Shown in pieces: positions 4,439 through 38,869 of a DNA stretch of 64,000 nucleotides. Numbering within the stretch: the stretch's first letter is position 1; each line of letters opens with the position of its first letter. Source of the DNA: a phage. The notes under the pieces are model-generated. The model ran no database searches, had not been told where the DNA came from, and worked only from the letters and a program-made list of their open reading frames with translations. Position numbers and translations under genes: made by a program. The stretch lies in the sequence record PZ445517.1, one strand, 5' to 3'.

Positions 4439-5639
4439 ATTTTGTAATAATGTCAAACTGTTCTTTAAAGCAGAAGCTTGAATCTTGATGCTGATACAAA
4501 AATTCATATGCTTTTTCTCGCTCACGGTCATAAAGAGCTCGGTCAGATGACAGTTCTTTAATACGTTCAAATGTTGATTCCATATCATTTTCATCAAACC
4601 AAATGATACCGCTATCATGCGAGGTCAAAGGAGTATTATCAACACGGAATTTTAAATTTTCGCCAGTAGATTTCCAAAATACCGGAATTGTTCCACATGC
4701 ACCAAGCTCGAGATGAGTATATTCTAAAGAACGTTGTAGATATTTTTTGTCCAACTTACTCAGCTGATAACCAAATCCGGATTTACTCATGCGTTCAAGC
4801 ATTTCGCTATTTACATAACGGTCAAGAATTTGCGTTGGCAAATTAGGAGCAATTTTAATTTGGTCTACTTGATGAAGACGATAATACTCGTATGGAATTC
4901 CTTTTTCTTTAATAGGAATGAACGCTGGAGAACGTTCCAGACCTTCCATAATAGTACTTAGTCCTGCAGGTTTAAGATGTTTTTCGTGAAAATCAAACAT
5001 CTGATAAAAACCTTTCCATGTAGTCGTACGACCAATCCAACGGTTGATATTCATGTTAATTTCAGAAACATCTTTCCAGTAGGTTGACCGAACCTTCGCA
5101 ATATCCATAGGAGGCTGAAAGTTATATACTGTCGGTGCTTCTTCAATATCATCAAACAGAGAAACTGTTTCTGGATACCATTCTTTCATCAGAACTTTAT
5201 TAAAATCGCCATTATCAGAATGACTAAAAATAACATCAGCTCGACGAACAGTTTCTTCTAATCCCAAATTTCGGCGCAAAGAAAGAGAAGAATGGTCATG
5301 TTGATAAACTACAACACGAACAGAAGGTTTAATGTTATCAATAATTTTTTTATAGTTATTAATAGTGTCTTCTTCAACCGAAGTAGCAGGAACTGAATTG
5401 ATAATTAGAATATCACAATCATTTACCAGCTTAAGTGTTTTATCATATTCTTTTGCCAATAAAACCGGAATTGAAAATGATTTATAATCATGCGCGCAAT
5501 TACGAGTAAATGATTTATCTTTAGCATAAACCAAAGTTACTTCATGACCATTTTTAATAAACCAATCACGTTGCTCAAGAGAAAATTTAGTTACACCACA
5601 ACCTTCAAGACCTCGAGCCATAAAAATACATACTTTCAT
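4437..5639 (-). CDS. a-gt: DNA alpha-glucosyltransferase
   Basis: 400 aa, matches my recall of T4 AGT (FMARGLEGCGVTKFSLEQRDWF...); ATG verified. Confidence 0.92.
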   Translation of the reverse strand: MKVCIFMARGLEGCGVTKFSLEQRDWFIKNGHEVTLVYAKDKSFTRNCAHDYKSFSIPVLLAKEYDKTLKLVNDCDILIINSVPATSVEEDTINNYKKIIDNIKPSVRVVVYQHDHSSLSLRRNLGLEETVRRADVIFSHSDNGDFNKVLMKEWYPETVSLFDDIEEAPTVYNFQPPMDIAKVRSTYWKDVSEINMNINRWIGRTTTWKGFYQMFDFHEKHLKPAGLSTIMEGLERSPAFIPIKEKGIPYEYYRLHQVDQIKIAPNLPTQILDRYVNSEMLERMSKSGFGYQLSKLDKKYLQRSLEYTHLELGACGTIPVFWKSTGENLKFRVDNTPLTSHDSGIIWFDENDMESTFERIKELSSDRALYDREREKAYEFLYQHQDSSFCFKEQFDIITK

Positions 5640-5690
5640 TTAATATCCTCTTTGTTTTGGTTTATTTTACCAAAAATTTATAAAGCAATA

Positions 5691-5708
5691 TAGGAGCCGA
5701 AGCTCCTA
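5691..5708 (-). terminator. UUCG-tetraloop hairpin (GGAGC-UUCG-GCUCC)
   Basis: plus ataggagccgaagctcctat between small ORF and a-gt. Confidence 0.4.
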
Positions 5709-5879
5709 TCCACATAATACGCCATACAGAGGCTCGTTAGAACTTTTAAATTTTATGCGCTTATATGTTATAGTTCCTTCTGCTTTAGCTTTATCATGAG
5801 ACTCTTTAAAGCGTCTCATCATTTCCTCTTTAGAGGAACGAATTTTATTATAATCTATTTCAGAAGTCTGGATGTTCAT
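5706..5879 (-). CDS. hypothetical protein (57 aa)
   Basis: manually translated MNIQTSEIDYNKIRSSKEEMMRRFKESHDK...; ATG at 5877-5879; weak SD. Confidence 0.3.
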   Translation of the reverse strand: MNIQTSEIDYNKIRSSKEEMMRRFKESHDKAKAEGTITYKRIKFKSSNEPLYGVLCG

Positions 5880-5882
5880 CTT

Positions 5883-6089
5883 TCACAGTTGCCACCATTT
5901 TTTGACTTGATAAGAATCAACCCACACTTTCATATTAGGGTCTGCTCTTACAATAGGAGGATTAACTTCTTTAATTGAACTATCATGGTATTCTTTTTCA
6001 GAAATTTTCACACAAAGATGACCATTCAAAGATTCAGTAAATCCTGCATTAATTTTAAGACGCTTGAATTTTACGTGTGTAAGCATCAA
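5883..6089 (-). CDS. hypothetical protein (68 aa)
   Basis: track ORF in a-gt to gene 55 interval. Confidence 0.4.
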   Translation of the reverse strand: MMLTHVKFKRLKINAGFTESLNGHLCVKISEKEYHDSSIKEVNPPIVRADPNMKVWVDSYQVKKWWQL

Positions 6090-30366: not shown

Positions 30367-30632
30367 TAGTATTTTTCCTCTGGTTGGAACACTGCACGAC
30401 AAGCCCACATACTGGCTTCTTTGAGTTTCGTTTTAGCAATATTTAACTGATCGAGGCTTTCAGCATAATTCTTCGCGAGTTCATCATCTTCACACTTATC
30501 TAGTGCTTCCCAGAATTCATCATATAAAGCATCAAAGATAAGTCCTAAACGAACTTCAGCGTCTTTGATAGCATTCACTTTACCGATTTTCTCTTCAGTA
30601 TGCGGCTTATAACCTTTAATGTCTTCAATCAT
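30366..30632 (-). CDS. hypothetical protein
   Basis: trimmed to ATG at 30630-30632 ([11 protein letters not shown]) with GAGGA SD. Confidence 0.45.
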
Positions 30633-30846
30633 ATTTGACTTCCTCACCAGTACATAAATCATATTCAACTAAACGAATAGGTTCATGAATGCCATATCCC
30701 TGAACAGAAATTTCTGTCGTAGGATAAATTCCATCAATATCACCCATATTCCACGCTTCGTTAAATTGCTGTTCGCCTGAATTACTAAACCACTCGGCGA
30801 AAGCATTTAGCACATCTTTAGAACCTTCAATAATTATCTTTGCCAT
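30625..30846 (-). CDS. hypothetical protein (73 aa)
   Basis: ATG overlaps the stop of the GrcA-like gene (TAATG). Confidence 0.45.
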   Translation of the reverse strand: MAKIIIEGSKDVLNAFAEWFSNSGEQQFNEAWNMGDIDGIYPTTEISVQGYGIHEPIRLVEYDLCTGEEVKYD

Positions 30847-31208
30847 TACAAACTCTCGGTGAAGGTACGAGCGATAACGTCGCGCTGCTGTTCCGGAGTC
30901 AGAGAGTTAAAGCGAACTGCATAACCGGATACACGGATGGTCAGCTGCGGATATTTTTCCGGATGCTTAACTGCATCTTCCAGAGTTTCACGACGCAGAA
31001 CGTTAACGTTCAGATGTTGACCACCTTCAACTTTAACTGTAGGCTGTTGCTCAATTTCAATTTCACGGGCATGCAAACCGTAGAAAATTTCTGGGTCTAC
31101 AAAAGAGTCCTCTTTAAAGGTTTTAGAGACAATAATTCGTGCTTGAATACCATCTTCAAAATAAATAGTACCTTTATGTGTGCCTTCAAGAATTTGATAT
31201 GCTTTCAT
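30846..31208 (-). CDS. GrcA/YfiD-like autonomous glycyl-radical cofactor protein
   Basis: 120 aa; C-terminal glycyl-radical motif RVSGYAVRF; last ~60 codons match my recall of E. coli GrcA and use GC-rich host-like codons, unlike the AT-rich 5-prime half. Confidence 0.85.
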
Positions 31209-31215
31209 ATAAACC

Positions 31216-31596
31216 TCAATTAGAAAATAAATTTATCCAAGATTGTTCTTTAATTAAAAATGGCTCAGAATCATATGCCATTAAACTCTGTGTGATTAGT
31301 CCTTTAAAAGGCCCATCAATAAATTCCATGGTAAAATATGGAATTTTATTCATTAGCCGTGCATTAGGAGCAGTACATAAAACTCTGCACCCTTTGAATA
31401 CACCTTTTTGTAATTTGTATTGCTTGGGATAAAATTCGCTCAAAATGTTATTTTTTGCCAAAATTTCAAAATGATTCACCAATTTATTTTTAATAGTTTT
31501 TGGTGAAAAATAAAGATATTCGAAAAGCTGAGTGTCTGTCATCATTGCATTCCGATTACGAAAAACTGTGGACGAGTAATACCACCAATGCAACAT
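31216..31596 (-). CDS. hypothetical protein (126 aa or shorter)
   Basis: track ORF; true start probably an internal Met ([13 protein letters not shown]). Confidence 0.4.
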
Positions 31597-32129
31597 TTAA
31601 TATTACAGCAGCAGTGTACAGTGTCAATATGGACACTATAAATCTTATCCATATCAGGAGATTTGACAGGCTCATCAATTATATATAAAATTCGCGAAAG
31701 CTTTAAACCTCTGAACTTGCTTCCTTTATTACCTATAAAACTGCGCACAGAATCAGTAAATAAACGAAAACGTATATCATCATTAGAATAACGCGAAAAT
31801 TCCTTTTTAATGTTATTTGCAGAAATTTTAGCGTAAGCTGAAGTATTAGAAAGAACAATAACTGTTCCACCGTCATACAACCAATTAGCGGCAAAATTAG
31901 TTACTGCAGTTGATTTACCAGATTGACGTCCACCATCTAGTCGAAGTGTGCAATACTGCTTAAGTAAGTCTTCAAATGGCGGGATATATTCGTTTTTACA
32001 AATTTCTTCTACTCTAGCGTCAGAATGGTGTGTAAAAGCATTCATCAGGGATAGATAAGGACCAGTTAAAAATGTTCTCATTTTCTTCTCTCTAAATTTG
32101 GGCCATTCCATGGCGCATGAATTGTCCAT
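31542..32129 (-). CDS. P-loop kinase-like protein
   Basis: Walker A GGRQSGKST and YIIDEP Walker B-like motif; size typical of small nucleotide kinases; Cys-rich C-terminal tail may be read-through into next gene. Confidence 0.5.
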   Translation of the reverse strand: MDNSCAMEWPKFREKKMRTFLTGPYLSLMNAFTHHSDARVEEICKNEYIPPFEDLLKQYCTLRLDGGRQSGKSTAVTNFAANWLYDGGTVIVLSNTSAYAKISANNIKKEFSRYSNDDIRFRLFTDSVRSFIGNKGSKFRGLKLSRILYIIDEPVKSPDMDKIYSVHIDTVHCCCNIKCCIGGITRPQFFVIGMQ

Positions 32130-32234
32130 TTCTGTATTTACCCATTACCGCACTTGGGCTCGACCTTATTACAGGTTGGCGGGAATCCCTCACAGAATCA
32201 TGAGGTCCAGCTTGTTCCCATATTTCTTATTTGC

Positions 32235-32708
32235 TTATTTGAATGATTTAACGTACTGAATAGAACCTTTACTATTCACAAAGGCAATTTTACCATTTTT
32301 ATTATACATGGTAGCAGTACGCTGATAGCCATAAGTTTGTTTACCAGATTGATAACCAACTAATGCGAAATTATCTTCACCCATTTTATTCTGTTTAGCA
32401 CGAATACGTTCATGACCATGTGCCATAAGAACCTTAGCATCACCAGTTGCAATGGATCGACGAGTTTTTTCATCTTCAACTGTATTAACAAAGTCGTCAA
32501 ATGAATCAAATTTAGCATGAGATTTATTATACAGTTTTCCATCTACTGCATAATTATATCCTTGTACATCCATCTCAACTTCTGTACCATCATCCAATAC
32601 AGCAGTGATTTTCTGACCTTTTTTAAATTTCAAAAGATCAGTAAAAGATTCAGCAATAATTTGAGAATTAATAGCTGCTTCAGTAATAAATTCTTGATAT
32701 GTTTTCAT
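32235..32708 (-). CDS. ipII: internal head protein with N-terminal capsid-targeting sequence (ipII locus)
   Basis: starts MKTYQEFITEA, the conserved CTS; 157 aa. Confidence 0.65.
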   Translation of the reverse strand: MKTYQEFITEAAINSQIIAESFTDLLKFKKGQKITAVLDDGTEVEMDVQGYNYAVDGKLYNKSHAKFDSFDDFVNTVEDEKTRRSIATGDAKVLMAHGHERIRAKQNKMGEDNFALVGYQSGKQTYGYQRTATMYNKNGKIAFVNSKGSIQYVKSFK

Positions 32709-32749
32709 ATGTTTCCTTTAAATGTAAATAGGTCTGAGTATTAGCTTTA

Positions 32750-33331
32750 TTAAGAATTACCGCGGGCTGCATTAGCAACGGCGTAAGCGTACTGAACATT
32801 AGCGTCTTTAAACGTACCTTTAGAGGTATCTAGTTCTGCCTTAAAGCCGCCTTTAGTCATAACCTCGGCGAATTCTTTACGGAAAGCCATTGCATCAAGG
32901 CTTCTCCATGATGATTTGTGCTTGGCGAATTCAAGACCAGCGTAGTTGACAGCCTTAGCTAATTTATTATCAATAACCCATTTACCAGATTTAGGCACAA
33001 ACACCGGGCCTTTCTGTTTAGAGAATAGTTTTAAATTCCAGCGACGAAGGTCACCGTCAGCTTTAACAAAAGCTGCGTCCAAGTTACTAGCAACAACATC
33101 TTGAATATGACCAAATTTAAGCCCATCAACTTCAATATTTAAATCGGTACGCCAGCGAAGTCCTTCCCAAGCGAAGGCTTTAAAGTCGGAAGCCTTTGTA
33201 GCTAAGTACCGTTCAATAGGAGCTGTTTTAGGGTCAAAGCCGTTTCCCGATCGGTAGGTCCACTCATCTTTATTAATGCCTTTGGCCTTTACTACAGAAG
33301 CTTCGGCAATAAATTCTTGATAGGTTTTCAT
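32750..33331 (-). CDS. ipIII: internal head protein IPIII
   Basis: 193 aa; starts MKTYQEFIAEA; size matches T4 IPIII. Confidence 0.85.
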   Translation of the reverse strand: MKTYQEFIAEASVVKAKGINKDEWTYRSGNGFDPKTAPIERYLATKASDFKAFAWEGLRWRTDLNIEVDGLKFGHIQDVVASNLDAAFVKADGDLRRWNLKLFSKQKGPVFVPKSGKWVIDNKLAKAVNYAGLEFAKHKSSWRSLDAMAFRKEFAEVMTKGGFKAELDTSKGTFKDANVQYAYAVANAARGNS

Positions 33332-37610: not shown

Positions 37611-37658
37611 CTTATTTCCTGTTTTAATTCGTGGTTTTAATATACTTATTTATACTAA

Positions 37659-37686
37659 AAAGCCCCAACCTTTCGGCTGGGGCTAA
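37659..37686 (-). terminator. GNRA-loop hairpin, sequence-related to the hairpin at 37103-37130
   Basis: minus-strand GCCCCAGCC-GAAA-GGUUGGGGC; shares the agcccca...ggggct arms with the downstream hairpin. Confidence 0.4.
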
Positions 37687-37734
37687 GCCTTGCGGCAACC
37701 TTGTCGGGGTTCCACCTGCTAAGGCAAGTGTTTG

Positions 37735-37827
37735 TACGAAACGCCGGGATTCGAACCCGGTTATTAAGCAGTTGACGCTACTCAATATTTTTAAAAGGCC
37801 ATATCTCGACCATATCCGAACGTTCCG
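37735..37827 (-). ncRNA. tRNA-like element (possible stable RNA or degenerate tRNA)
   Basis: canonical T-arm CCGGG-TTCGAAT-CCCGG and a 7-bp acceptor pairing (CGGAACG/CGTTTCG with one G-U), but ~93 nt long with no canonical anticodon arm. Confidence 0.35.
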
Positions 37828-38000
37828 TCAAAAACGCTACTCGGCTTATGGCAAAGATATTTCCTCGAATCGATAATTCGGTGCGCCGTTTCTGCTGTGA
37901 TATAAGGGGGCATTAGCAGATCGTAAAGATTTGTTAATGCCAGTCCTTAAACAGGGAACATCAGTCCGACGACTTGCCGGTAGCGACCCGGCTTCTTGTC

Positions 38001-38330: not shown

Positions 38331-38339
38331 AAATTTTTC

Positions 38340-38822
38340 TTATTTTATGTAATATTTATTTAAAAACTTTCTAGCTTGAGTATGGCTAACATTTATAGCG
38401 TTTGCATAATTTTTAATAAAACCTCGTTCATCCATATTAAAATTTTCTAATATTTTTAATCGTCTAATTATCTCATCTTGGCTTAAGGTACTTGCATTAT
38501 TTTTAGAAATTTTTTCTAAAGACTGCACTGAGTGTTTTCGACCATTAAAATTAAAATTTTTAGGTTTTGGAGGAAATCTATCATTTAGTCTCGCATCTTT
38601 TGTATTTTGATTATTAGTTGCGCAATATATGTTATTTAATGAGTATGGTCCTTTATCACCAAAACGACACATACAGTATTCATGACCCTTTCTTCCACGC
38701 TTATCATAATTTCCTGTTGATTTCCACCAATTTAACCACTCATCAAAAGTTAAATTCCATTCAATGTTTCTACGTATAGCAGAATTCCGCTGAGAAATAT
38801 ATTTTGCATAATCTTCTTTCAT
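38340..38822 (-). CDS. hypothetical protein between the two tRNA subclusters, possible DNA-binding or endonuclease-like
   Basis: ATG at 38820-38822; Cys/His-containing N-terminal half (GHEYCMCRFGDKG) and helix-turn-helix-like C-terminus; no clear HNH or GIY-YIG signature. Confidence 0.5.
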   Translation of the reverse strand: MKEDYAKYISQRNSAIRRNIEWNLTFDEWLNWWKSTGNYDKRGRKGHEYCMCRFGDKGPYSLNNIYCATNNQNTKDARLNDRFPPKPKNFNFNGRKHSVQSLEKISKNNASTLSQDEIIRRLKILENFNMDERGFIKNYANAINVSHTQARKFLNKYYIK

Positions 38823-38869
38823 CACAAATTTCTCTACTTATTACATGCACTAAGCTAAATCAGCAAAAC

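Follow-up and report, generated by a model that had tools for sequence, protein, structure and literature searches.

What are the P-loop gene, its partner ORF and the GC-rich leader at positions 31216-32234 of the phage record PZ445517.1, and have they taken the place of denV? The window, which is the whole stretch of 64,000 nucleotides that was analysed, comes from a Tequatrovirus, and it is 100% identical to T4_ev240 over the 2 kb compared. The first-pass annotation had read the locus as a horizontally acquired replacement of denV with a kinase-like gene. Phylogenetic distribution, synteny and RNA covariation suggest that the region is probably a conserved T-even block, vs.8-vs.7(-vs.6), with a conserved structured RNA in front of it. 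The protein-coding part is ordinary, and its annotation could be tidied at the vs.8 start and at the vs.8/vs.7 boundary. The earlier remark that the leader looks odd was correct, and the leader is the most interesting part of the locus.

The absence of denV from the 64-kb window was confirmed (best tblastn match of T4 DenV, E 1.0), and T4 does carry denV at the corresponding position. T4 also has vs.8 and vs.7, as orthologues in the same order and with the same ATGA junction, directly 3' of denV; therefore, the pair is no substitute for denV. The vs.8 and vs.7 are conserved T-even genes, native to these phages and adjacent to denV in T4. The gene order vs.8-vs.7-vs.6, located 3' of the Ip/denV cassette, is common to T4, RB32, slur14, and T4_ev240. 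The cassette upstream varies (ipII plus denV, denV plus Ip4, or Ip4 alone); the vs.8/vs.7 pair is constant. The denV gene is missing from the window because this variable cassette holds an Ip4-type internal virion protein gene (32235-32708, minus strand; Pfam DUF7412, E 6e-96; Ip4 in RB32), not ipII and denV. This neighbour had been taken for ipII; T4 ipII and the Ip4-type protein share a weak similarity (33% identity over 79 aa, from residue 1 in both). The next gene of the block is vs.6 (30846-31208, minus strand), which encodes a GrcA-like glycyl-radical protein (Pfam Gly_radical, E 2e-18) and is annotated as vs.6/GrcA in T4 and RB32. This GrcA-like protein has been discussed previously (PMC1524935). 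Two Klebsiella phages of the set PKO111, KpnM6E1, and AlbertHofmann have one additional ORF between vs.7 and the GrcA-like gene.

The proposal that a kinase- or zeta-toxin-like module, possibly frameshifted, was acquired horizontally and took the place of denV draws on the Walker A and B motifs, the size typical of a small kinase, and the window without denV. This proposal is already refuted by the T4 synteny, and the remaining evidence leaves it scarcely tenable. The vs.8 gene is present once in each of 1010 phage records, all T4-like among the matches listed; its C-terminus and the ATGA junction are conserved. The Walker B motif is of the hhhhDE type. No Pfam kinase or Zeta_toxin match was obtained even at E<=10, and the top structure matches include helicase and terminase ATPases without any kinase; profile and fold searches thus rule out a nucleoside/nucleotide kinase or a zeta toxin. 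The first-pass annotation had named a conserved, characterised T-even set as a finding that would refute it. The pair is conserved, but the genes are uncharacterised: both PHROG families (1488 for vs.8 and 2049 for vs.7) are labelled 'unknown function', and a literature search returned nothing biochemical or genetic on either protein.

Both ORFs that had been described are present on the minus strand, at 31542-32129 (195 aa) and 31216-31596 (126 aa), and the suspicion of a mis-set boundary was correct for one of them. The 55-nt overlap between the two is an artefact, created by running the second ORF back to the first ATG upstream. The vs.7 start that is conserved, an ATG at 31545, gives a CDS of 109 aa (31216-31545) with a 4-nt overlap (ATGA, 31542-31545) with the vs.8 stop; this start is annotated in T4_ev240, RB32, PKO111, KpnM6E1, and AlbertHofmann. 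The conserved vs.8 start is M17 of the 195-aa ORF, giving a CDS of 179 aa (31542-32081). The in-frame extension of 16 codons (32082-32129) has no protein-level conservation and belongs to the 5' leader; the family begins with M(R/K)TFLT, and the frame over this segment varies among phages (MCQGMAQ.. in PSD2001, MRHG.. in P0026, and the 219-aa annotation in T4 through an 8-nt insertion). The T4 reference Vs.8 starts 40 codons further upstream, within the RNA module, and that start is not conserved. A Cys-rich, junk-like 3' end with a possible frameshift had also been described for vs.8. The Cys-rich stretch is a variable loop, followed by the invariant C-terminus FFVIGMQ; the corresponding (L/Q)FFVIG(M/T/V)Q is nearly invariant in the family alignment, and this claim fails.

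The window Vs.8 shows 92% identity over 195 aa to T4 Vs.8 (NP_049732; tblastn, E 4e-121) and matches the whole phrog_1488 profile (E 2e-79). The window Vs.7 is 100% identical to T4 Vs.7 (NP_049731) and matches phrog_2049 (E 4e-54); the Pfam family precomputed for its homologues is PF26834. The vs.7 gene lies directly 3' of vs.8, with the 4-nt overlap, in RB32, PKO111, KpnM6E1, and AlbertHofmann, and homologues were found 3' of vs.8 at most T4-like loci examined. By its sequence context, vs.7 is a conserved downstream partner gene of vs.8, predicted to be translationally coupled through the ATGA. The Vs.7 structure model is poor (pLDDT 66, pTM 0.48) and offers no functional clue. The vs.8 family is small, with only 50 cluster representatives at E<=1e-3 among 1.84 billion proteins, and its members are mostly about 140-185 aa. 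In one T2 record (PV958097), vs.8 is frameshifted by two 2-nt deletions.

The GGRQSGKST and YIIDEP motifs noted previously are present in Vs.8 and fall in columns of the family alignment that rank among the most conserved, which supports its assignment as a P-loop NTP-binding protein. Counting from the conserved start M1 of the 179-aa form, a Walker A of the pattern GxxxxGK[ST] was found at G50-GRQSGK-S57, with D49 to K56 invariant in 19 sequences. The Walker B (hhhhDE) is L132-YIIDE-P138, in which E137 is invariant and D136 nearly so. R113 and R124 are also invariant, and FFVIGMQ forms a conserved C-terminal strand. In the AF2 model (pLDDT 82), Vs.8 is a single stand-alone RecA-like (ASCE) domain of the helicase/terminase class, with a five-stranded α/β predicted fold. 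The Foldseek search against the PDB matched helicases, the P74-26 terminase ATPase, and the phi29 packaging ATPase, the nearest folds being SF2 helicase domain 1 and the phage terminase ATPases; these matches concern a very common domain and are modest in Z and TM (TM about 0.45). Weak sequence matches agree with this fold: the phrog_2 large terminase (3.6e-6), and AAA_14, AAA_30, and Terminase_6N below threshold. A search with the vs.8 profile among the sequences of solved structures was uninformative, its hits to a TraD-like coupling protein and an SRP receptor being marginal (E about 0.05). Searches of NCBIfam and PADLOC returned nothing significant; the PtuA AAA hit (E 0.007) reflects P-loop similarity only.

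The comparison with characterised ATPases sets Vs.8 apart from them. The terminase and packaging ATPases (T4 gp17 N-domain 2o0h, Sf6 gp2, P74-26 TerL, and phi29 gp16) differ from Vs.8, which is only 179 aa, has no subdomain II, and is encoded in an accessory-gene block rather than the packaging module. A large terminase was rejected: the Terminase_6N match, at 14.2 bits, is below the cut-off of 22 and covers the Walker A region only, and the protein ends 40 residues past Walker B, without a C-terminal RNase-H-like nuclease domain. The first RecA domains of SF2 helicases (DEAD-box DDX1/DDX20, Mfd, and RIG-I-like) share 8-16% sequence identity with Vs.8, where no Q, Ia, Ib, or IV-VI motif could be identified. 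A full SF1/SF2 helicase was also rejected, since the model has one domain and not two tandem RecA-like domains. Some GenBank records label vs.8 and vs.7 as RegB; this was rejected for vs.8 (BLASTP against the RegB of the window, E 10; no RegB Pfam match). The labels 'RegB domain' and 'DNA packaging protein' could thus be corrected.

We infer that Vs.8 binds and hydrolyses ATP, with K56 in Walker A and D136/E137 in Walker B as the residues responsible. It probably acts as a homo-oligomer or together with Vs.7, because a lone RecA-like domain cannot complete an active site or translocate; R113 or R124 is a candidate trans-acting arginine. The substrate is expected to be DNA or RNA, and the role to be accessory and, given the frameshifted T2 gene, non-essential. 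Structural analogues of equal size, also uncharacterised, were found across many large phages, and Vs.8 joins these stand-alone mini RecA-like ATPases.

The leader had been described as unusually GC-rich, and this was borne out: the GC content is 0.46 over 32130-32234 and 0.54 over the 80-nt core at 32140-32219 (minus strand), against a window mean of 0.35. The core ranks in the top 0.4% of 80-nt windows by GC, and the others that high are mostly in the tRNA/stable-RNA region. Comparative analysis indicates that this core is an 80-nt RNA module on the gene strand, with two covarying helices around an almost invariant loop. The helix P1 pairs 32215-32219 with 32181-32185; P3 pairs 32174-32179 with 32142-32149, with an AA bulge; and a hairpin, P2, is formed by 32200-32205 and 32188-32193. 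The near-invariant loop UGUAAUAAGGUCGAGCCnnnGyGC (32150-32173; UGUnnnAAGGUCGAGCC...GCGGUAA) lies within P3. The covariance model R1 has a single match in the window (99 bits, E 7e-23). The module is conserved in nucleotide sequence regardless of which gene lies upstream and of the reading frame, and two types, A and B, differ by 17 nt in length.

Compensatory changes on both sides were found in all five pairs of P1 and in all three pairs of outer P3. In the covariation score, for which the starting alignment was anchored by eye and A7 was fitted to the model, both of which favour the structure, 95% of cells are paired; none of 500 shuffles reached the observed value, and slid controls were 16-62% paired. 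The U-G pairs fit the gene strand only. Compensations within lineages, taken from unambiguous alignments, include GGGAA/UUCCC to GGGAG/CUCCC (L021), AAAGG/CCUUU to AAAGC/GCUUU (L017, L034) or AAAGA/UCUUU (L026), CCUCA/UGAGG to CCUUA/UAAGG (L042), and GAAUG/CAUUC to GAGUG/CACUC (L053). The single-sequence MFE of the leader is no better than that of shuffles (z -0.17), and MFE folding recovered P1 and P3 in some lineages only. When run on a plain MAFFT alignment, in which the 5' strands were out of register, RNAalifold did not find P1; the helix emerged only once the alignment was trimmed to the module. The interior loop is too invariant in sequence for its pairing to be testable. A pseudoknot between (C)GACC and GGUC(G), and other pairings within the invariant loop, were rejected as unsupported outside the T4-like phages or untestable.

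The module matched no Rfam family. Rfam 15 gave nothing credible at E<=10 over 30500-33000, no match at E<=1 for L005/L006, and none at E<=10 for the spacer of Pseudomonas phage PsgM04F. A tRNA or tmRNA was rejected with ARAGORN, which finds none at the leader. A host origin was rejected with 5,426 E. coli genomes, none of which matched, and no exact 20-mer was found in 185,579 bacterial and archaeal species genomes. A literature search found no paper describing the module.

The 3' part of the leader (32082-32139, minus strand) is conserved in T4-like phages only, across both module types. It contains a GGA...ATG(Y)GCC start-like site and a hairpin (GCCAUGGAAUGGC, 32102-32114), followed by the vs.8 ribosome-binding region; RNAalifold predicts a GCC/GGC stem here. 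The window phage has an 8-codon uORF at 32092-32118. In AlbertHofmann, which has no 5' module, this 3' part is retained, with an early-type promoter immediately before it.

The T4 reference annotation of 219 aa implies that the leader codes the N-terminal 40 residues of a longer Vs.8, as NP_049732 begins at an ATG within the module, in a frame that T4 keeps open. However, the frame is closed in the window phage and in RB32/slur14-type phages, with an 8-nt indel relative to T4, and the 17-nt difference between types A and B also speaks against coding. About 30 nt are invariant at all three codon positions, and the changes in P1 and P3 are pairwise compensatory. Moreover, the start motif and usual length of the vs.8 family speak against these residues, and the same sequence lies in non-coding tRNA spacers of other phages. 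A coding leader is thus very improbable.

The module was found in about 1000 T4-like phage records, T4 included, where the reference annotation reads it as coding. In these phages it is almost always directly upstream of vs.8, and homology among phages with differing upstream cassettes resumes exactly at its 5' end. No promoter-like site was found between Ip4 and vs.8. Some T4-like loci have tandem or second copies, including copies ahead of internal-protein genes; AlbertHofmann has vs.8 and no module. The module core is also present in Vequintavirus, PsgM04F, and metagenomic phages, within tRNA clusters. At 16 of the 17 loci that are not T4-like, the module has tRNA genes of the same strand close by, at distances of up to about 1.4 kb and mostly no more than 0.7 kb; in L050 the module is 18 nt downstream of a tRNA-like gene. 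FV3 and the L036/L040 group have a perfect sigma-70 promoter downstream of the module, and PsgM04F has no same-strand ORF of at least 25 aa over or after it.

A general function is argued for by the presence of the module in tRNA clusters of unrelated phages with different hosts. The module would then be an autonomous functional RNA rather than a specific regulator of vs.8, probably released or kept as a stable structured piece of transcript. It may be bound by a factor that is highly conserved between hosts; candidate partners of the loop are tRNA itself, a tRNA-processing or tRNA-targeting enzyme, and RNA polymerase. In T4-like phages, it might also mark the point where homology resumes past the variable cassette. 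We tentatively suggest that the module could be the founder of an undescribed phage ncRNA family, whose loop either binds a universally conserved partner of tRNA biology or transcription, or is catalytic.

The near-constant position before vs.8 within T4-like phages fits equally well with a 5'-UTR element that acts in cis on the translation or stability of the vs.8-vs.7-vs.6 mRNA; a riboswitch, an operator bound by a protein and a stabiliser of the 5' end are examples. T4-like phages of several genera have the module directly 5' of vs.8, irrespective of the preceding gene; PKO111 has an early-type promoter just 5' of the copy ahead of vs.8; and helices closing an invariant loop resemble an aptamer. 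However, elsewhere the module lies among tRNA genes, where there is no ORF for it to control, or has a promoter downstream of it, and copies occur in tandem and ahead of internal-protein genes. AlbertHofmann has vs.8 without it, and the T2 record retains an intact module (89 bits) before its vs.8 pseudogene. There is also no evident expression platform: a terminator was not found, and 58 nt separate the module from the start codon. A cis-acting role is possible, but rather unlikely. The put RNAs of phage HK022 are processive antiterminator RNAs. A similar activity might carry transcription on from the variable cassette into the vs.8-regB block, or through arrays of tRNA genes. The two stems with few nucleotides between them, the constant location on the transcribed strand with long arrays of co-directional genes or tRNAs to follow, the independence from the identity of the downstream gene, and an invariant core suited to binding a conserved host enzyme are all consistent with this. 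The support is purely positional, and no downstream terminators that need suppression were identified; we consider antitermination improbable.

Conservation mainly at the DNA level is equally improbable; the module would then anchor recombination, or mark a cassette boundary, in the hypervariable Ip/denV region, much like the PeSLs, and have no RNA function. Homology does resume exactly at the module, copies do flank internal-protein genes, and PeSLs are known to mediate such shuffling (PMC4122927). However, an anchor would need identity, not compensatory pair changes or U-G pairs on one strand; the leader has no PeSL promoter TTTACW-N17-TAYWAT; and the core is common to unrelated phages in another genomic setting. 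A small self-cleaving ribozyme for transcript processing, comparable to the theta (HDV-like) ribozymes, would account for the compact module, the invariant core, and the same-strand association with phage tRNA clusters, including the 18-nt spacing in L050; the theta ribozymes show that phages use such elements (PMC10879173). This is more doubtful still, since no Rfam ribozyme family matched at E<=10, and manual threading of an HDV-like fold found no P1 partner for CGAGCCC and no C in the would-be L3.

T4 is the best-studied phage, yet it has a conserved covarying RNA without an Rfam family, annotated as protein-coding. If the proposal is true, this would be a new functional RNA in T4, concealed by an over-extended protein annotation, and would also occur in Vequintavirus, Pseudomonas, and uncultured phages, whose copies are set within tRNA arrays and larger, ornate non-coding regions. 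The function of the module is directly testable by T4 genetics. The GOLLD and ROOL are large phage-encoded structured RNAs. The module would extend the short list of phage structured RNAs, which includes rnaC, rnaD, and the theta ribozymes.

The resemblance to known elements is partial. The theta ribozymes are also compact and on the same strand as phage tRNA genes, but lie within about 5 nt of the tRNA (PMC10879173), whereas the module is usually tens to hundreds of nucleotides away; their nested double pseudoknot could not be fitted by hand, and there is no match to an Rfam HDV family. The PeSL cassettes of T4-type phages consist of a short stem-loop and the early promoter TTTACW-N17-TAYWAT (PMC2839356, PMC4122927). 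Both PeSLs and the module are conserved intergenic elements bordering variable cassettes in hyperplastic regions; the module differs in being promoterless, two-helix, and covarying, with an invariant 24-nt loop, and in its presence in non-T4 phages. The T4 rnaC and rnaD (species 1 and 2) are small GC-rich T-even RNAs, likewise without an assigned function, and share their location within the tRNA cluster, on the strand of the tRNA genes, with the copies of the module in other phages. A paralogue of rnaC/rnaD was rejected, as they have no similarity to the module or to its FV3 and PsgM04F relatives. In contrast to rnaC and rnaD, the module of T4-like phages is located in an mRNA leader, about 6 kb from the tRNA cluster.

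The 2 kb at 30800-32800 are 100% identical to Escherichia phage T4_ev240 and share 96-99% identity with many Tequatrovirus genomes. All genes lie on the minus strand, in transcription order (5' to 3') nudE, e (lysozyme), ipIII-like, Ip4-type, spacer, 195-aa ORF, 126-aa ORF, GrcA-like, vs.5, vs.4, vs.3, and regB. The gene before the 153-nt spacer (32235-32708, -), taken for ipII in the first-pass annotation, encodes an Ip4-type internal protein (DUF7412). The three genes past the spacer are named vs.8, vs.7, and vs.6 in RB32; T4 has the order e, ipIII, ipII, denV, vs.8, vs.7, vs.6, with denV near this position as the first-pass annotation says. T4 Vs.8 and Vs.7 match the window with 92% and 100% identity (tblastn). 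The vs.8 and vs.7 genes are already known, conserved, uncharacterised T-even ORFs, and only their fold assignment and corrected boundaries are new.

As claimed, no DenV homologue was found by tblastn anywhere in the 64-kb window. The two ORFs had been read as a possible horizontally acquired replacement of denV; T4 has vs.8 and vs.7 beside denV. Differences among the four phages compared are confined to the region upstream of the leader, with ipII and denV in T4, a short internal protein, denV, and Ip4 in slur14, Ip4 directly after e in RB32, and ipIII and Ip4 in the window phage; the first base of the GC-rich module is exactly where nucleotide homology among them starts again. This variation and the restart of homology indicate that the absence of denV within the window is, by sequence comparison, a polymorphism of the hypervariable internal-protein cassette, of which vs.8 and vs.7 are the conserved flank and not an insert. 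The lack of v gene function in T2 and T6 is long established.

The first-pass annotation was mostly ordinary as written and wrong in its central interpretation; its remark on a GC-rich leader was the productive part, and led to a candidate new phage RNA family that is present in T4 itself. The 80-nt core has a GC content of 0.54 versus a window mean of 0.35, within the top 0.4% of 80-nt windows; most other windows as GC-rich lie in the tRNA/stable-RNA region. About 125 nt downstream from 32219 are almost identical in T4, RB32, slur14, and the window phage. A 38-44-nt core was found by blastn, with 89-95% identity, in Vequintavirus (FV3, Murica, naswa, slur16) and Pseudomonas phage PsgM04F, in unannotated DNA within tRNA gene clusters and on the tRNA strand. 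Pattern scans of IMG/VR and metagenomes identified further T4-like variants, and also unrelated contigs of 38-148 kb. E. coli genomes do not contain the core, and none of 185,579 bacterial and archaeal species genomes contains its exact 20-mer. No Rfam 15 family matched the module in any context examined, and no prior description was found in Rfam 15 or the searchable literature, although it may have been mentioned elsewhere.

The lineages compared share one structural plan: helix P1 (5-6 bp), which surrounds both a loop often starting with AAGC and an optional hairpin P2, and then helix P3, with 1-4 nt between P1 and P3. In P3, (CC)N-ACC pairs with GGU-AA-N'(GG), closing the loop UGUnnnAAGGUCGAGCCnnnGyGC. 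In a first alignment of 30 distinct sequences, anchored by eye, all five P1 pairs vary on both sides, the P3 pair N:N' is seen as AU, UA, UG, and CG, and 95% of the cells are paired. None of 500 shuffles matched the observed score, and sliding the partners by 1-3 columns reduced pairing to 27-62%. Searched with the covariance model of this alignment, the window yields a single site (32140-32219, -; 99 bits) and the collected loci yield 45 sites. The result holds in the larger alignment of these 45 sites, fitted to the covariance model, in which the outer P3 pairs covary (3/3). Several compensations could be read between close relatives, whose alignment is unambiguous: GGGAG/CUCCC in locus L021, AAAGC/GCUUU in L017 and L034, AAAGA/UCUUU in L026, GAGUG/CACUC in L053, and, in P2, CCUUA/UAAGG in L042. 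The U-G pairs are compatible with the gene strand only, the two sequence types of the T4-like module (A and B) differ in length by 17 nt, and different phages have different open reading frames across the module; therefore, the module cannot owe its conservation to protein coding on either strand. The single-sequence folding energy is unremarkable, and inside the P3 loop there is too little variation for pairing to be analysed. One GenBank record presents the P2 hairpin as a terminator, but the hairpin lacks a following U-run. Neither a promoter nor an intrinsic terminator was predicted in the window spacer upstream of vs.8.

The identity and the structure of the module have been demonstrated, whereas its function is what we infer. 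The evidence favours, as the most likely reading, an autonomous RNA module, which T4-like phages would carry in the vs.8 leader, over a dedicated vs.8 regulator. In T4-like phages the usual position is before vs.8, and a cis-regulatory role there seems unlikely, though it deserves some weight. Second copies occur before internal-protein genes (PKO111, locus L029, copies at 967-1063 and 1506-1585; locus L017, 10343-10439) or in tandem (L060, 8968-9064 and 9103-9176; L058, 5207-5303 and 5096-5168). In non-tandem two-copy T4-like phages, one copy precedes an internal-protein gene and the other vs.8; the two copies of one phage can differ in sequence type. T2 retains the module ahead of a vs.8 gene that is itself broken. 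AlbertHofmann carries vs.8, but of the leader only the 3' part is present, immediately preceded by an early-type promoter. Downstream of the module, FV3 and its relatives have a perfect TTGACA-17-TAAAAT promoter, so in these phages the module does not serve as a 5' UTR for the following gene; in PsgM04F it is neither covered nor followed by any same-strand ORF of 25 aa or longer.

For the autonomous module, near-perfect conservation in phages of Escherichia, Klebsiella, Salmonella, Yersinia, and Pseudomonas points to a partner that may be conserved across these hosts. Same-strand tRNA genes lie near the module in 16 of 17 loci of non-T4-like phages, at most about 1.4 kb away and mostly within 0.7 kb (18 nt in L050). 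This home in tRNA arrays points to a possible link with tRNA biology, or with the transcription and processing of the arrays. Other candidate readings are a put-like antiterminator, a ribozyme, and a recombination anchor acting purely at the DNA level; the module differs from PeSL cassettes, T4 rnaC and rnaD, and theta ribozymes.

In PsgM04F-like phages and in viral contigs of 46-70 kb, the module lies within a 0.5-0.85-kb non-coding stretch beside tRNA genes (L051, about 5100-5960, -; L006, 1372-1866, +; also L053, L054, L059, and L062). In L051 the stretch begins just downstream of a strong sigma-70-like promoter. Repeats of a long hairpin unit (CACAACAGGUAAGAGCAYUG ... CAGUGCUCUUnCCGUUGUG) occur in the stretch, as does the conserved junction GAAAGCAAA. 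It resembles a large ornate RNA, or several RNA units in an array, and no Rfam match was found for it. Vequintavirus-like phages (FV3, locus L005, 1380-1470) also have, upstream of the module, a second short conserved motif, CCCyUAGAGGGCUUGAWAGUGC, which flanks the module on either side in the L036/L040 group. GACG-tetraloop hairpins are another recurring element around this region (FV3, L036/L040 flanks).

Both ORFs and both Walker motifs of the first-pass annotation are present. The first 16 codons of the 195-aa ORF (31542-32129, -) are not conserved as protein, and every full-length relative starts with M(R/K)TFLT (here M17; 179 aa, 31542-32081). The suspected mis-set boundary was real; the suspected frameshift was not. 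The Cys-rich 3' end, described as junk-like, is a variable, poorly conserved loop (low confidence, pLDDT below 50 at residues 160-167), after which the protein ends in the near-invariant strand FFVIG(M/T/V)Q, showing that the reading frame is uninterrupted. The 55-nt overlap of the two ORFs exists in the mechanically extended ORFs only: the annotated, conserved start codon of vs.7 (31216-31545, -) is the ATG at 31545, which shares ATGA with the vs.8 stop. RB32, PKO111, KpnM6E1, and AlbertHofmann have this 4-nt overlap in their annotations too. It suggests that the genes may be translationally coupled, favouring co-production of Vs.8 and Vs.7, which might be physical partners. The vs.7 gene lies downstream of vs.8 in several lineages of T4-like phages. 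Vs.7 has a conserved core (G-P-F-K-G ... A-P-N ... E-F-I-x-G-x-x-K-G-h-h-T-x-S-L) and no family match in local profile libraries; its structure prediction was too uncertain to use.

The T4 vs.8 annotation (NP_049732, 219 aa; NC_000866, locus L004, 5254-5913; equivalent to window 32082-32200) begins within the RNA module. A T4-specific 8-nt insertion, by eye a near-tandem repeat (CTTATAGAG twice) and absent from RB32, slur14, and the window phage, shifts the frame and adds 40 codons. These codons owe their existence to the insertion and the family does not conserve them, so the annotated start probably lies too far upstream. An 8-codon uORF, MRHGMAQI (32092-32118, -), with its own GGA Shine-Dalgarno-like site, shortly precedes the vs.8 start; it overlaps the conserved hairpin GCCAUGGAAUGGC, and its ATG is in frame with vs.8 in other phages.

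The vs.8 family is small, with 50 cluster representatives (E<=1e-3; 1.84 billion proteins searched), most of about 140-185 aa. The gene is single copy in each of 1010 phage records, all T4-like among the matches listed. Invariant residues are D49-GGRQSGK, E137, R113, R124, K146, and Y148; D136 is nearly so. Profile searches gave sub-threshold P-loop matches (AAA_14, AAA_30, Terminase_6N), and PHROG its own family plus a weak match to large terminases. The AlphaFold model on the family alignment is confident (pLDDT 82, pTM 0.83), with a single five-stranded alpha/beta domain. The protein had been likened in size to small nucleoside/nucleotide kinases; no such kinase stands near the top of the fold matches. 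A terminase was rejected (no nuclease domain, profile below threshold), as was a helicase (no second RecA domain); with these absences and this fold, the modelled Vs.8 is best described as a putative stand-alone mini RecA-like ATPase. It would act as an oligomer or with a partner, since a lone RecA-like domain needs a neighbour to complete its site. Many uncharacterised structural analogues of 145-175 aa occur among predicted viral structures, from Proteus, Vibrio, Aeromonas, Stenotrophomonas, Dickeya, Erwinia, and Acinetobacter phages and Pseudomonas jumbo phages.

Homologues of vs.8 and vs.7 are mislabelled in public records as 'endoribonuclease', 'RegB domain-containing protein', or 'DNA packaging protein' (GenBank MH051915, KU925172, MW749001, MN850590, and MZ502379; homologous proteins P0004, P0006, and P0070). 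Direct comparison of vs.8 with RegB gave no detectable similarity, so the RegB label was rejected and looks like a mis-annotation propagated from the adjacent regB. In the T2 record (PV958097, locus L067, 701-1236), vs.8 carries two 2-nt deletions, is annotated as separate short ORFs, and is probably a pseudogene; the deletions make it dispensable at least in this record, in which vs.7, vs.6, and the RNA module are all intact.

Elsewhere in the window, GC-rich 80-nt windows at 37649-37778 and 37930-38000 (-) lie just past the tRNA-Arg gene, at the place occupied in T4 by the stable RNAs rnaC and rnaD, of which they are presumably homologues. A 540-nt gap (38331-38869) divides the eight-tRNA cluster into two groups; the T4 tRNA cluster holds the homing endonuclease gene segB inside.
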